Shown here: piece after piece, positions 55,594 through 62,939 of the stretch
How positions within the stretch are numbered: position 1 is the first letter of the stretch
How the letters are laid out: each line of letters begins with the position of its first letter
Source: an uncultured Clostridia bacterium
GTDB lineage: Bacteria > Bacillota > Clostridia > Christensenellales > CAG-917
DNA length: 64,000 nt
Assembly: GCA_949283145.1 (NCBI GenBank)
Contig: CASDRL010000011.1
Location: forward strand, 1,142 to 65,141
Reading direction: 5' to 3'
Notes under the pieces: generated by a model
Told to the model about the DNA's origin: nothing
What the model saw: the letters and a program-made list of their open reading frames with translations, nothing else
Databases searched by the model: none
Made by a program: the position numbers and the translations under genes

Positions 55594-57258
55594 ATGAAAA
55601 AGAGACTTTCCTTTTACGGGTTCATGACCCATCACGCCACTCTCGGCGCCGAGGCTGTCCTCGCCGCGTTAGCGCCCATGCTTTACTGGGCTTGCAGAGA
55701 GAGCGGGCACGGCTTCATCGACATCTATTCCTTCAACGGCGCGTCCCACCTCATCCTTTGGCTGATGGTGGCGAACGCCATTGCTGTCGCGGCGCTCGCC
55801 GCGCTCAGGTTCCGCGCGGAGCGTTTTTCGGGAGAGGATGCGCCCAAGGCGTACAACATCGCCTGTTCGGTGACCTTCTTCACCTCGATATTTTTCTTTT
55901 TGGTGGACGCGGTCATTCTCGGCGTAATGGGGGAAGAGTCCACGCCCATCGCGGGCAACGCGCTCGTCGAGGTGCTGCCTTTCGGGCTCGCCTATTGCGC
56001 CGTGGTCTTCTTCGCCCTCTTTTTCCCCGCCGTCAAAGGCAAAAAGATGCGCATCGCCATCGCTTCCGTCGCGATAACGCTCGGGGCGCTCGGGATGCTC
56101 TTTGCGATCTATCCGCCCGTGCATTACGAGATCCTCGCCGCGCCCATGGTCATTGACGACGGCGAGGGCTACTCCGTGGTGTTCGCGACCAGCGCGCCGG
56201 GGACGGGCTATATCGAATATGAATACGAAGGGGAAGAGTACCGCGTCTACGACTCCACGCAGGGCAAGATCAGAGGGGACAGCACCGTCCACCACATCCG
56301 CGTGCCCTACGAGCACCTGAACGGCAATGACTACCGCGTGGGTTCCATGCGCGTCTTCGAGGTGTACGGCTACGGCGGCAGGAACGGGCGCACGGTGACT
56401 TCGGAGACCTACACTTTCACCCCTGTCACGGGGGACACGCAGGACTATCTTTGCATCTCGGACTGGCACATCCGTCTCGACCGCGCCTATGACGCGATAA
56501 GTTACGTCGGCGACTATGACGCCGTCCTGCTCATGGGGGACGCCGCAGCGTCAATAGAGCGCGAGAAGGATGTCGCGGAGTATATCGTCGAGTTCGGCGG
56601 CAAACTCTCCGGCGGCGAGAAGCCCGTGGTCTATCTCAGAGGCAACCACGAGACGAGAGGGAAGTACGCTTCCGAGCTCGCGCGCAGTCTCGGCATGGAA
56701 GAGTTCTATTACGAGATGAGGATGGGGGACTACCGCTTCATCGTGCTGGACAGCGGCGAAGACAAGAACGACGATCACCCCGAGTACGGCTCCCTCGTCG
56801 CGTATGAGCAGTACCGCGAGGAGATGGCGGATTGGCTGGACACTCTCGAGGCGGACGGCAGCAATACCGTCGTGCTGTGCCATTCTCCCTCCGTGGGGCT
56901 CCCGCACGGGAAATACGTTGACGAGCCCGAGGATGAACTCAGGGCGCGCATATTCGCAAAGCTTGAAGAACTCGGCGCCTCCGTGCTCATCTCGGGACAC
57001 TCGCACGAGTGCTATCTCAACCTCAACGACGGCAGCGGGAGCATGCTCGGCGAGCTCTACATCAACCCCGACGGGTATGCCTATGAGGACGATCCTTCCA
57101 CCAACCTGAGCGGCATCCCCGTGTATGTGGACGGCGGCTTCGTGCACTATGAGGATCTGTTCGTCGCAAGCAAGGTCACGCTTTCACCGGACGGCATCGT
57201 CCTCTCCGCCTTCTCGGAGCACGGCGACAAAGTGTTCGGGTACGACCTCGAATGGTGA
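55594..57258 (+). CDS. Polytopic membrane metallophosphoesterase
   Basis: 554 aa with about 6 N-terminal TMs. Metallophosphoesterase motifs ISDWH, LMGDAA, GNHETRG, GHSHE. Confidence 0.7.
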   Translation: MKKRLSFYGFMTHHATLGAEAVLAALAPMLYWACRESGHGFIDIYSFNGASHLILWLMVANAIAVAALAALRFRAERFSGEDAPKAYNIACSVTFFTSIFFFLVDAVILGVMGEESTPIAGNALVEVLPFGLAYCAVVFFALFFPAVKGKKMRIAIASVAITLGALGMLFAIYPPVHYEILAAPMVIDDGEGYSVVFATSAPGTGYIEYEYEGEEYRVYDSTQGKIRGDSTVHHIRVPYEHLNGNDYRVGSMRVFEVYGYGGRNGRTVTSETYTFTPVTGDTQDYLCISDWHIRLDRAYDAISYVGDYDAVLLMGDAAASIEREKDVAEYIVEFGGKLSGGEKPVVYLRGNHETRGKYASELARSLGMEEFYYEMRMGDYRFIVLDSGEDKNDDHPEYGSLVAYEQYREEMADWLDTLEADGSNTVVLCHSPSVGLPHGKYVDEPEDELRARIFAKLEELGASVLISGHSHECYLNLNDGSGSMLGELYINPDGYAYEDDPSTNLSGIPVYVDGGFVHYEDLFVASKVTLSPDGIVLSAFSEHGDKVFGYDLEW

Positions 57259-60393: not shown

Positions 60394-60556
60394 TTTCCCT
60401 CGCTTATCAGATGTCGGAACGAGCGATGCCGACCGACCTCGAGTAATATTTTCCGGCGCTTTTTGCGCCCGGAATTTGCCGATGGCATAGGGGAGTGCAC
60501 GGAAAACCGAAAAACACAAGAGCGGCATTCAGCCGCCCGTTCCCCCCTACAAGCTA

Positions 60557-60585
60557 ATTTTACCCTTGCCTACGCGCACTGTCAA
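60557..60585 (-). promoter_or_regulatory. Sigma-70-type promoter for the MFS pair
   Basis: Minus strand TTGACA (60585-60580), 17-nt spacer, TAAAAT (60562-60557). Leaves an approx 155-nt leader. Confidence 0.5.
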
Positions 60586-60736
60586 TACCGAATGCGCGCG
60601 CGTGAGTGAACAATCCCGCCCGAATGCCGTTTTTCTCGCCCCGTGAAAGCCGTATGTGATCCGCTTGAAATCCCGTCCGCGATCGGTTTGATATACAGAA
60701 TCACGCGCGTTTAAATATTGCTGCAAAGGCAGTAAT

Positions 60737-61975
60737 TCAGATTTTGTCGGCTGCTTTAAGGTCAAGTCTAATCATTGTTCTAAAAGCGCCGCTGTAATTC
60801 AACAAACCACCATTGTCATATACGAACGAAGAAAGAGATGCGTTTCCGTAGGGCAACTTGTACCACCAATAGCATGTGCCGGAAGGACCACTATAAGCCC
60901 CTTGTTCCATTGCGTAATCTGTCGGTAGTGATTCGCGGGTGGGAGTTATATTGAAAGTTGTATCAAACGTTAAATCTGCCGATGTCAGATCTTCTATTAA
61001 AGGAAGTGTTACGTAATCATCGTCTATTTTTTCCATCAACGCTTTTTCAGTCTCGTTGAAGGCAATATTATAGAATTCGTTATTTAGCCAATTTCTGATT
61101 TCGGTTTCTTCCCAATATACCATTTTGGGAATGCTGTGATATTCCCTGCAATCCAGACATTTTTCCGACAAAAGGTAAAGCGTTTTGTCTTCATATTTCA
61201 TAACGCGCCAACTTATTGGCTCCACGCGGAAATATTTGCCGTTTTTGAATTTGTACAGCTCGTCTCCGCGCCGGTAGTAATTTTTGGGCAGCGGGACCAG
61301 ATCCTTTTTCCAAATCGAGAACATTTTTATCTCGGATTGCGGATACTGTCCGAACATTACGGTTCTGATGCCGTTGGAATTTACTGTATGATGCAAAAAT
61401 TCATATCCAACCAGCTCAAGATCTTGGGCATTTTGTTCGGTAGTTATATTCCATTTGCGTAACTTTTCGTATAAAGTAGATATGTGAGACATATCGTTTG
61501 CGTCTGCCGATCTGCCTACAAACGGATAATCATCATCAAATGTCTCACTGATAAGGCGTGTCCGTTTGGAGTTGCGCCTAGCCCGTTCCTCATCATTTAA
61601 TTGAGAAGTTTCGTCAAACAATTCGGTCGTATTTTTGTTGCCGATGTTCACTGAAAAATAACTCTTTAAAGATCCGTCATCGGTTTTCAACAAGGCGATC
61701 TCTTTCTCTATTGATTCGGAAGCAAATACATGCGGAGAAAGATAAAAGACGACGGCAACGCACCTTGGATCACGGATTCTGCGTTCGATTTGAGTATACC
61801 AAAGATCCGATCCGACCTCTAATCCGCGGTCGTACCAAAATTTTACGCCTAATTCAAACAACTTGTTCAAGTCGTTGTAGACGATGTCGGCATCTTTATG
61901 TGAGTAGCTGATAAAAATGTAATGATCTTCGGGAGTGTATTCCTTTCTGTCGATATATAAACTTGGCAATGTCAT
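60737..61975 (-). CDS. TIR domain protein fused to a DUF6273-like C-terminal domain
   Basis: ATG 61975 with AAGGGGG 9 nt upstream (the track start is TTG 61984). N-terminus YIFISYSHKDADIVYNDLNKLFELGVKFWYDRGLEVGSDLW...VVFYLSPHVFASESIEKEI is TIR-like. The C-terminus has FGQYPQ...EPISWRVM...WEETEIRNWLNNEFYNIAF. GC is much lower than in the flanks. Confidence 0.8.
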   Translation of the reverse strand: MTLPSLYIDRKEYTPEDHYIFISYSHKDADIVYNDLNKLFELGVKFWYDRGLEVGSDLWYTQIERRIRDPRCVAVVFYLSPHVFASESIEKEIALLKTDDGSLKSYFSVNIGNKNTTELFDETSQLNDEERARRNSKRTRLISETFDDDYPFVGRSADANDMSHISTLYEKLRKWNITTEQNAQDLELVGYEFLHHTVNSNGIRTVMFGQYPQSEIKMFSIWKKDLVPLPKNYYRRGDELYKFKNGKYFRVEPISWRVMKYEDKTLYLLSEKCLDCREYHSIPKMVYWEETEIRNWLNNEFYNIAFNETEKALMEKIDDDYVTLPLIEDLTSADLTFDTTFNITPTRESLPTDYAMEQGAYSGPSGTCYWWYKLPYGNASLSSFVYDNGGLLNYSGAFRTMIRLDLKAADKI

Positions 61976-62003
61976 AATGAGCAACCCCCTTGTCTTTAAA
62001 AAG

Positions 62004-62032
62004 ATTATATAAAAGTATTAAATTGCTGTCAA
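62004..62032 (-). promoter_or_regulatory. Perfect-consensus sigma-70 promoter of the TIR gene
   Basis: Minus strand TTGACA (62032-62027), exactly 17 nt, TATAAT (62009-62004). Confidence 0.65.
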
Positions 62033-62048
62033 TACCAATCGTTCAAAG

Positions 62049-62316
62049 TGTTGGCGCGGGACGGGACTTGCTCCGCGCTCGCTATGCTAGTGGACGCATA
62101 CGGCTTGGGGATAACATCGTTCTTGCATTATGGTGCGTTGCTCGCGCTATCACGCCGGGGCGGGAAACTTGCCCCGCAAAGTGTCCTCATTTCATTCCGG
62201 CGCTTTGCGGGGACCCCGATCATTATTAAGATACATCACTTCATGAATGTAAGGCTTGATCATATTTCCGCCCGTTCAAGCCCCGTCCCTCGACAAATTA
62301 AATGCTCCGCTATGAC
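62049..62316 (-). repeat. tRNA-Leu 3'-end-like unit A (with 99-nt apical cassette)
   Basis: 62054-62165 equals 62639-62750 except one base (62087 c vs 62672 a). 62265-62316 is identical to 62778-62829. The tRNA-like tail is mutated (ttggcgcggg instead of tggtgcgcggg). Confidence 0.7.
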
Positions 62317-62453
62317 GATAATGTCACGCAAAATTCCCGCGGAGCGAAAATGAGTGAAAGAGCGATAGTTGCGGAGCGGAGCGGAGAAACGAGGAGCGAA
62401 TGAACGGCTTGCATTTTCGTGACGCGAAGAGGAGCCGCAGGCTCATACGCAAA

Positions 62454-62475
62454 CACCCCGCAATTCTGCGGGGTG
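62454..62475 (-). terminator. Hairpin following unit C
   Basis: Minus strand caccccgcagaattgcggggtg followed by tttg. Confidence 0.4.
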
Positions 62476-62501
62476 TTGCTAATGGCGCCTTGCGGCGACG
62501 A

Positions 62502-62598
62502 TGGTGCGCGGGACGAGACTTGTAAGGAGCGAAGCGACGGAATAGCGATCGTTGCATGAAGTGCCGATCGCGTCAGCCACAGGGAGAAAGTCCCGTCT
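62502..62598 (-). repeat. tRNA-Leu 3'-end-like unit C
   Basis: Minus strand ends ...acaagtctcgtcccgcgcacca. Its 5' GACGGGAC can pair with the 3' GUCUCGUC; one pair is a G-U wobble only in the minus-sense RNA. Confidence 0.55.
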
Positions 62599-62607
62599 GC
62601 GAAAAAG

Positions 62608-62635
62608 AAAGTCCCGTGACACTTCACGGGACTTT
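62608..62635 (-). terminator. Intrinsic terminator immediately after unit B
   Basis: Minus strand aaagtcccgtgaagtgtcacgggacttt followed by cttttt. Confidence 0.65.
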
Positions 62636-62814
62636 GGTGCGCGGGACGGGACTTGCTCCGCGCTCGCTATGATAGTGGACGCATACGGCTTGGGGATAAC
62701 ATCGTTCTTGCATTATGGTGCGTTGCTCGCGCTATCACGCCGGGGCGGGACAACAGCCAATCCGTAGGCTGTTGTCTTTTCCGCCCGTTCAAGCCCCGTC
62801 CCTCGACAAATTAA
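62635..62814 (-). repeat. tRNA-Leu 3'-end-like unit B (with 27-nt apical hairpin)
   Basis: Minus strand ends ...gcaagtcccgtcccgcgcacca, identical over the last 21 nt to the tRNA-Leu 3' end. The 5' GGGACGGG can pair with the 3' CCCGTCCC. Confidence 0.7.
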
Positions 62815-62850
62815 ATGCTCCGCTATGACATAGTCGTCATAGCGGAGCAT
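62815..62850 (-). terminator. Intrinsic terminator of tRNA-Leu
   Basis: 15-bp stem atgctccgctatgac/gtcatagcggagcat, followed by tttaattt on the minus strand. Confidence 0.7.
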
Positions 62851-62851
62851 T

Positions 62852-62939
62852 TGGTGCGCGGGACGGGACTTGAACCCACATGAACGTATTGTTCACTAGA
62901 ACCTGAATCTAGCGCGTCTGCCAATTTCGCCACCCACGC
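62852..62939 (-). tRNA. tRNA-Leu (anticodon CAG), class II with long variable arm, CCA encoded
   Basis: Hand-folded. Acceptor GCGTGGG/CCCGCGC with one G-U pair; anticodon stem CTAGA/TCTAG; loop TTCAGGT. Long variable arm, T-loop TTCAAGT, discriminator A plus CCA. Confidence 0.9.

Follow-up and report, generated by a model that had tools for sequence, protein, structure and literature searches.

SpbK of Bacillus subtilis, encoded by a single gene of the integrative element ICEBs1, is a TIR NAD+ hydrolase (NADase) that acts by abortive infection; its non-TIR domain docks on the dodecameric SPbeta portal YonE, and NAD+ is depleted as a result (PMC12847820). The active sites of TIR NADases arise only between self-associated TIR domains (reviewed in PMC12847820), and clustering of the TIR domains is driven by the non-TIR domains in SpbK, STING-TIR, SAVED-TIR, SARM1 and the plant NLRs (PMC12847820). 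Another described group is the CLec conflict systems of multicellular bacteria, in which STAND/VMAP sensors are diversified by diversity-generating retroelements (DGRs), some of them having TIR effectors (PMC10907252, PMC7159879). In the present study, we analyzed a stretch of 64,000 nucleotides (nt) from an uncultured Clostridia bacterium of the Christensenellales (GenBank assembly GCA_949283145.1, contig CASDRL010000011.1, positions 1,142 to 65,141; the whole stretch is called the window below), which contains a gene for a 412-amino-acid (aa) protein with an N-terminal TIR domain and a C-terminal DUF6273 domain. With moderate confidence, this protein is proposed to be an SpbK-like single-protein sensor-effector, that is, an abortive-infection NADase whose lectin-fold domain would sense a conserved ligand.

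The original prediction, made by reading the DNA, had described a 412-aa open reading frame in a low-GC segment, a bacterial TIR domain at its N-terminus with a candidate catalytic Glu in SIEKEI, a DUF6273-like C-terminal module and a perfect TTGACA-17-TATAAT promoter. All of these were recovered in the follow-up, and the gene has the following features:

60737..61975, minus strand: coding sequence of the 412-aa TIR-DUF6273 protein, with the stop codon at 60737-60739 (open reading frame list, Pfam, AlphaFold2 model)
61571..61927, minus strand: TIR domain, aa 17-135, flavodoxin-like, predicted NADase (TIR_2, Foldseek, profile matches)
61700..61702, minus strand: codon of Glu92 (SIEK-E-I), the predicted catalytic glutamate (invariant, aligned to the reference Glu)
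61391..61570, minus strand: helical linker, aa 136-195, part of the conserved N-terminal module (AlphaFold2 model, BLASTP)
60740..61390, minus strand: DUF6273 domain, aa 196-412, beta-rich, with a beta-hairpin insertion at about aa 214-250 (Pfam, phmmer, BFVD, model)
61985..61991, minus strand: ribosome-binding site AAGGGGG, 9 nt upstream of the ATG (read from the sequence)
62004..62032, minus strand: sigma-70-type promoter TTGACA-17-TATAAT, matching 12/12 consensus positions

The TIR domain was identified by Pfam, where TIR_2 (PF13676) matched aa 20-98 above its cut-off (E=7.6e-10, 39.8 bits; cut-off 28). An AlphaFold2 model of the 412-aa protein, built on a 30-sequence alignment, consists of two confidently predicted domains (pLDDT 86, pTM 0.78). 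In a Foldseek search of its TIR part against the PDB, SPARTA TIR-APAZ chains ranked first, followed by RPS4, RUN1, RPP1 and AbTir, at a probability of ~1.0 to these solved TIRs and with a TM score of about 0.6 (target-normalized) to the TIR domains of RPS4, RUN1 and AbTir. The TIR domains of all five proteins cleave NAD+. A profile built from the TIR region of the family also matched AbTir (E=1.6e-5) and TIR-APAZ (E=8.5e-4), and in the profile alignments Glu92 is aligned with the Glu of 'WTNYEL' in AbTir and with residue 77 in 'VLKEL' of MapSPARTA TIR-APAZ, which we take to be the catalytic residues E208 and E77, respectively. Glu92 is kept in 10/10 family members, the divergent ones included. 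Given the TIR fold and the aligned, invariant Glu92, the catalytic Glu is not missing, a lack that would have spoken against the original prediction; judged from the sequence, it appears intact, and the domain is a predicted NADase. No signal peptide, hydrophobic N-terminus or membrane segment was found in the sequence of the 412-aa protein, and it is therefore expected to be cytoplasmic. On a contig with the same locus from another metagenome (L001 532-1770), the sole amino-acid change is D49G, which affects an invariant TIR residue in the WYD motif; with the coverage of this contig at about 2.5x, the change may have arisen in sequencing or, alternatively, may reflect loss of function in a gene that is potentially toxic.

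In the AlphaFold2 model, the linker helices span aa 136-145, 165-175 and 179-189. For the part that follows, Pfam DUF6273 (PF19789) matched aa 267-316 above its cut-off (E=7.4e-7, 29.6 bits; cut-off 23.5) and covered 50 aa, while phmmer, run against 1.84 billion representatives, yielded thousands of DUF6273 proteins aligned over aa about 205-410, most of which are giant surface proteins with multiple repeats. P0011, a distant relative with two full DUF6273 domains (E=3e-54), can likewise be aligned over the entire domain. A model of the C-terminal part only reached a pLDDT of 83.5, and the structural matches of this domain in BFVD are 'DUF6273 domain-containing proteins' of phages classed as Siphoviridae and Myoviridae. 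DUF6273 has been described as C-type-lectin-like (C-lec) (PMC10743442; bioRxiv 10.1101/2024.10.15.618418) and as a receptor-binding, DGR-diversified C-lec scaffold in gut phages, where it is the domain that DGRs usually target (PMC10743442, PMC11792537, bioRxiv 10.1101/2024.10.15.618418). The C-lec fold of aa 196-412 is an assignment taken from this published work on DUF6273.

The combination of the two domains is rare. A word-indexed search of 5.8 billion clusters returned nine clusters of the same architecture at 48-100% identity, all metagenomic, plus P0011. In the exhaustive search of the 1.84 billion representatives, the close family amounted to two 50%-identity representatives (P0007 and P0008), accompanied by three divergent proteins of about 390 aa (P0129, P0132 and P0174) with a layout of TIR, linker and 'FGxYPQ...WR...VRP', so that the architecture totals only about five 50%-identity clusters. 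The homologues at 48-71% identity retain the full length and all key residues. Carriage by a phage or plasmid was considered and rejected; the TIR-DUF6273 architecture was found in none of INPHARED phages, PLSDB plasmids and IMG/VR, the DNA of the D1 repeat (see below) is absent from IMG/VR, and the JGI metagenomes contain a single 1.6-kb contig with the architecture. The 90% cluster of P0001 also holds six unrelated proteins of 54-57 aa (MVDMEKREALLERVIRVYGFEHE...), which is an artefact of database clustering.

More distant matches share the N-terminal part of the protein and have MORN repeats, BspA-type LRR_5 or FHA as their C-terminus. By BLASTP, aa 12-186 are 35% identical to a TIR-MORN protein (P0018) and a TIR-LRR_5 protein (P0024), and in both of them the similarity ends at one shared junction (aa 185-186), directly before the C-terminal domain. 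This common end point indicates that the evolutionary unit is a TIR-plus-linker effector module with interchangeable binding domains, and such swappable C-termini correspond to an effector-plus-interchangeable-sensor pattern. A wider idea, which we put forward tentatively and hold to be possible but doubtful, is that the TIR-plus-linker module (aa about 12-186) defines a family in gut Clostridia that has not been described before, in which each innate immune receptor consists of one protein and DUF6273, MORN, BspA-type LRR or FHA is plugged in at a fixed junction. In the DUF6273 version, the bacterial host would have co-opted for its own receptor the fold by which gut phages recognize their hosts; this receptor would recognize a conserved phage component and trigger the depletion of NAD+, with no need for an NTPase switch, DGR or partner gene.

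Compared with SpbK, the locus shows the same type of layout: a monocistronic gene that joins a TIR domain to a non-TIR domain, at a hotspot of scars of attachment sites (att), with an integrase in the relative L017. The two are alike in being stand-alone genes on, or left by, an integrative element, in joining TIR to a non-TIR recognition domain and in activation by clustering, which is proposed here for the TIR-DUF6273 protein. They are unlike in that the recognition domain is N-terminal in SpbK, whereas here the TIR domain is N-terminal and the putative sensor is a DUF6273 domain of presumed C-lec fold. No chain named SpbK was among the PDB profile matches at E up to 0.01, the SpbK sequence itself not having been compared directly. 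With the CLec conflict systems, the protein shares a presumed antigen sensor at the C-terminus, here a domain described as C-type-lectin-like, and an N-terminal effector, which in those systems includes TIR. In contrast to them, it has no NTPase (NACHT, nSTAND or MoxR), no vWA partner and no DGR, its lectin subtype is DUF6273 and not FGE/TvpA, and its host is a unicellular member of the gut Clostridia. The Pfam scan at E up to 1 gave no P-loop NTPase family, and the gap between TIR and DUF6273 is a helical linker of roughly 60 aa; a STAND/NLR-like receptor (Avs, bNACHT or the DGR-CLec STANDs) was thus rejected because the central NTPase is absent. The DUF6273 proteins of phages (tentaclins and Mtd-like DGR targets; PMC10743442, PMC11792537) have the same Pfam domain and provide the BFVD matches, but they are receptor-binding proteins of the virion with hypervariable C-termini, whereas the protein studied here is predicted to be cytoplasmic, is fused to TIR and has a conserved C-terminus.

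The TIR effectors of Thoeris (ThsB), TIR-SAVED, SPARTA and Pycsar have the TIR fold and the catalytic Glu in common with this protein, and SPARTA TIR-APAZ is its best structural match; unlike them, it lacks ThsA, cyclase, Argonaute and SAVED, both as partners and as domains. Membership in Thoeris was rejected since ThsB_TIR scored 14.8 bits against a cut-off of 21.2, PADLOC gave no ThsB match and there is no effector in an operon with the gene. A TIR-SAVED effector of CBASS or type III CRISPR systems was rejected as well, because the PADLOC match to SAVED_TIR covers aa 19-143, the TIR part, only, and the C-terminus is DUF6273.

If the SpbK-like function is correct, the protein would be inactive in the uninfected cell, as a monomer or dimer. 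The lectin-fold domain would bind a conserved, probably multivalent or multimeric component of the invader, such as a phage structural protein or a polymer, and this binding would cluster the TIR domains head-to-tail into a composite active site. NAD+ would then be hydrolyzed, possibly with products of the cyclic ADP-ribose (cADPR) type, and the infection would be aborted. Support for this function comes from the neighborhood of P0011, a 569-aa protein with TIR and two DUF6273 domains that is encoded in L003 10001-16559 tail-to-tail with a 1565-aa TIR-WD40/beta-propeller protein, with a Cas6 gene near. This neighborhood resembles a defense island; dnaA/dnaN are close by.

The gene appears to act without a partner. 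One side of it (44-60.5 kb of the window) is occupied by Era, RecO, Sua5, a low-molecular-weight phosphatase, SmpB, enzymes of the Met pathway, a Metallophos protein and two MFS transporters, and the other side by a tRNA and an FtsX permease. Past the window edge, where a companion effector could have ended the stand-alone reading of the original prediction, the same locus in L035 has three FtsX permeases and an ABC ATPase instead. The survey of the window and L035 gave no SIR2, SLOG, Macro or caspase-like genes within 17 kb on one side and 10 kb on the other; the window contains no integrase or transposase, and neither a secretion-system gene nor an immunity-like small open reading frame lies beside the TIR gene. 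The absence of such a partner or mobility gene within reach agrees with what had been stated before. Among the homologues, the neighborhoods are unrelated: an M28 peptidase with ABC/FtsX, Metallophos with ThiF, HTH_3 with SHOCT and UPRTase, a 252-aa protein without known function, and an ADP-ribosylglycohydrolase. The neighbors differ in about 10 contexts and no partner gene is conserved across them, the similarity of the DNA between homologues stops at the borders of the coding sequence, and most copies have their own TTGACA/TATAAT promoter. The TIR-DUF6273 gene is thus a stand-alone gene and is monocistronic, transcribed from its own consensus promoter, which is unchanged across all strains compared. 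Its start codon is ATG; an alternative TTG three codons upstream, which would give 415 aa, is too near the AAGGGGG ribosome-binding site. A convincing terminator of the TIR gene was not found.

Two neighboring genes deserve mention. An ADP-ribosylglycohydrolase (L013/L014 1783-2928; PF03747, 5e-57), Tri1/DraG-like by NCBIfam below the cut-off, follows the TIR-DUF6273 homologue P0006 after about 400 nt and is encoded on its strand. In the window, the Metallophos gene (55594-57258, plus strand) encodes a membrane-anchored protein of 554 aa at 3.5 kb from the TIR gene, has a host-like GC content at third codon positions (GC3) of 0.82, and is 29% identical (E=2e-22) to the Metallophos protein directly downstream of the TIR-DUF6273 homologue in L007. 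It is missing at the syntenic spot in L016, L017 and L019 and present in every strain carrying the TIR gene; a link to ADP-ribose (ADPR)/cADPR metabolism is possible. Metallophos was nevertheless not adopted as a partner, as its GC3 is host-like, two syntenic MFS genes lie between it and the TIR gene, it has no PADLOC match and it recurs in one other context only. At 60394-60640 (minus strand), a leader of about 190 nt lies between the promoter (TTGACA-17-TAAAAT, 60585..60557) and the start of the adjacent MFS gene. This leader contains a terminator-like hairpin at 60538-60520, has no Rfam match, and by eye hardly differs from its counterparts in L016 and L017, where the coding regions reach an identity of only about 88%; an attenuator or riboswitch-like element is possible.

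The composition of the gene is foreign to the genome. The GC content is 0.41 in the gene and 0.403 in the segment 60707-62040, against 0.592 in the remaining window, and GC3 is 0.45 in the TIR gene and 0.82 in the neighboring MFS and Metallophos genes. The low-GC side of the predicted GC contrast thus holds, whereas the value of more than 60% given for the flanks was slightly too high, the non-coding DNA immediately flanking the islet having a GC content of 0.53-0.58. Related loci were retrieved by anchoring on the adjacent MFS protein, which gave 14 loci; they belong to related species placed with 'Candidatus Limadaptatus' and Christensenellales gut metagenome-assembled genomes. The TIR gene was found in 0/14 of these loci, all of which retain the MFS anchor, so that it is not a gene present at this interval in all relatives. 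In four relatives (L015, L016, L018 and L019), a divergent tRNA-Leu(CAA) is located immediately upstream of the MFS pair, in place of the TIR islet and the tRNA-Leu(CAG) array described below, and the intergenic region at 60640-60710 of the window is a synteny breakpoint. The homologues stay at about 0.41 GC in unrelated flanks, and this constancy suggests a donor pool of roughly 40% GC and recent spread. Foreign composition and absence from related loci together argue for horizontal acquisition of the TIR gene, as had been predicted.

The gene was said to lie next to tRNA-Leu and to be bracketed by an imperfect direct repeat at 60711 and 62018. A tRNA-Leu(CAG) is indeed nearby; it is not directly adjacent, and an array of tRNA-3'-end repeats of approximately 800 nt separates it from the TIR gene. 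The relevant features are:

62852..62939, minus strand: tRNA-Leu(CAG), whose last 21 nt are att0 (ARAGORN; Rfam tRNA 48 bits)
62635..62655, minus strand: att1, copy of the tRNA 3'-end, 21/21 nt (repeat search)
62502..62522, minus strand: att2, copy of the tRNA 3'-end, 20/21 nt (repeat search)
62050..62070, minus strand: att3, most distal copy of the tRNA 3'-end, 17/21 nt, which adjoins the promoter and is the right border of the low-GC islet (repeat family D2)
62054..62316, minus strand: repeat unit of D3, a long loop and D1, a mini-element remnant, with a second copy at 62639-62829
60665..60681, no strand assigned: inverted att-like 17-mer distal to the stop codon of the gene, near the left border of the islet (score 11, 4/2000 shuffles)

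Four copies of the tRNA-Leu(CAG) 3'-end (17-21 nt; at 62852, 62635, 62502 and 62050) are thus present, where 0 are expected by chance. In the array (62045-62872), these att copies separate remnants, namely the D3-D1 units, a terminator-bearing E2 unit and an E3 unit, and the duplicated unit consists of a 112-nt repeat at 99% identity and a 52-nt repeat at 100% identity. Strains of this one species differ by the gain and loss of units at att boundaries (the first unit is missing in L041, two motifs are missing in L039, and a 62-nt deletion removes att3 in L043), and the TIR gene itself is constant. The bracketing repeat exists at chance level, since 82/2000 shuffles of the 80-nt end window reach its score. 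It was rejected as a target-site duplication or att on the same count, and the homologues share no flanking DNA. No direct att copy was found distal to the gene, 1385/2000 shuffles reaching the score of the best candidate. A classical tRNA-associated island, with att repeats on both sides and an integrase, was rejected for lack of a distal direct att and of an integrase in the window.

In L017, the closest informative relative, the position corresponding to 62268 of the window is joined straight to 60640, and the TIR gene and one repeat unit are missing. About 30 nt common to L016 and the window are also lacking there, so that L017 is no clean empty site. This locus carries a gene for a 314-aa tyrosine integrase (L017 247-1191, minus strand; Phage_integrase 5e-26 and a SAM-like N-terminal domain) beside a degenerate att copy, and its position at the same tRNA-Leu/MFS hotspot indicates that the hotspot is still in use. 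As the TIR gene follows the most distal att copy and no direct att lies beyond it, the gene is probably stranded cargo of an integrative element at the tRNA-Leu(CAG) hotspot, the remaining genes of which would have been lost later. The array was also considered as a structured or known RNA. The att0-att1 unit (62630-62855, minus strand) folds at -111 kcal/mol (z=-10.2 vs shuffles), the tRNA being followed directly by a perfect hairpin of 17 bp, and att1 pairing with an inverted att-like sequence to close a long stem. The longer second copy (62045-62330) reaches a z of only -2.35. An RNA was rejected because Rfam gave the tRNA only and the second copy folds weakly, and the unit is taken as inverted-repeat scar DNA.

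Several observations weigh against an SpbK-like sensor-effector. Most contexts of the homologues are no obvious defense islands, NCBIfam gave zero matches on the 412-aa protein, and the PADLOC matches are weak and confined to TIR (SAVED_TIR 1.6e-8, PDC-S66 1e-4). The Foldseek search of the C-terminal-only model against the PDB gave nothing significant, the best match being 9qa6 (E=0.26); this entry is the IgA peptidase of T. ramosa, which has DUF6273 as its N-terminal domain (PMC12402451). An NADase expressed constitutively from a consensus promoter would have to be tightly autoinhibited, and such autoinhibition is itself hypothetical. A search that finds carriers only detected the exact protein on 23 contigs; these come from many samples, and the locus was the same on each. 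Within that scope (the same place on 23/23 carrier contigs), the TIR islet is not a strain-variable cassette, and strains of the same species without the TIR gene, sought through the exact MFS protein, gave no record. The region equivalent to the variable region (VR) of DGR targets, aa 353-405, is the most conserved one, with a mean pairwise identity of 80% vs 66% overall. An arms-race sensor surface might vary more; a conserved target would explain the conservation, and the conserved surface fits a conserved ligand and not an arms-race epitope. A DGR target was rejected on the grounds of this conservation and because the window contains no template repeat, every part of the gene being present there only once.

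Other functions have to be weighed against the same data. The TIR domain could act as a Thoeris-like signal generator that makes a messenger of the cADPR-isomer or His-ADPR type, with the activated effector encoded elsewhere in the genome. Many bacterial TIRs do produce signals (bioRxiv 10.64898/2025.12.03.692087), SpbK additionally makes N1-cADPR, to which no role is assigned (PMC12847820), and a weak similarity to ThsB_TIR (E=0.04), together with a match of P0011 to ThsB1 (7e-4), points the same way, as do the ADP-ribosylglycohydrolase downstream in L013/L014 and the Metallophos protein, which is downstream in L007 and at a short distance in the window. We consider this function unlikely, however, as the ThsB_TIR score stays below its cut-off, the described Thoeris effectors share the operon (PMC12847820) while no effector-like neighbor recurs in the contexts of the homologues, and look-alikes of SIR2, SLOG, Macro and caspase are absent over the distances surveyed.

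A non-immune role, be it as a toxin-like selfish gene, as a regulator of NAD/ADPR metabolism or as a factor that acts on host or competitor cells through the lectin-like domain, would suit the facts that DUF6273 occurs mostly in large proteins of the extracellular surface or in receptor-binding proteins of phages (phmmer; PMC12402451), that the putative binding surface is strongly conserved, that the exact protein occupies one locus on all 23 contigs and that the neighbors are housekeeping genes. It is improbable in our view, given that a signal peptide, a secretion-system gene and an immunity-like small open reading frame are all absent, that TIR-plus-linker recurs with several binding domains, as is typical of conflict systems, and that one relative (P0011) has a TIR/Cas6 neighborhood. 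The gene could finally be a decaying passenger, the last remnant of a degraded integrative element for which selection has gone in the present host; its place at the end of the att-scar array, the lost integrase, the D49G variant and the lack of a convincing terminator can be read in this sense. Against this, the open reading frame is intact, the protein identical on 23 contigs and the consensus promoter invariant, the diverged homologues are full-length with their key residues, and the gene is constant across strains that differ in the neighboring att units. Decay is therefore judged very unlikely.

The pairing of TIR with DUF6273 is a rare combination of two known domains, and the general principle was already established. 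If functional, the SpbK-like protein would represent a minimal form of pattern-recognition receptor, with 412 aa in two domains, in a poorly studied, uncultured gut lineage, coupling a TIR NADase to a lectin fold known mainly from phage receptor-binding and surface proteins. If the proposed function is true, the single-gene TIR defenses, for which SpbK is the mechanistic prototype, would gain a new type of sensor, and CLec sensors would be seen to need neither a STAND NTPase nor diversification by a DGR. The fixed junction at which MORN, LRR and FHA are swapped in is a natural scaffold to study or engineer ligand-triggered TIR activation, and identification of the ligand would give DUF6273, an abundant domain of unknown function, its first biochemical handle.

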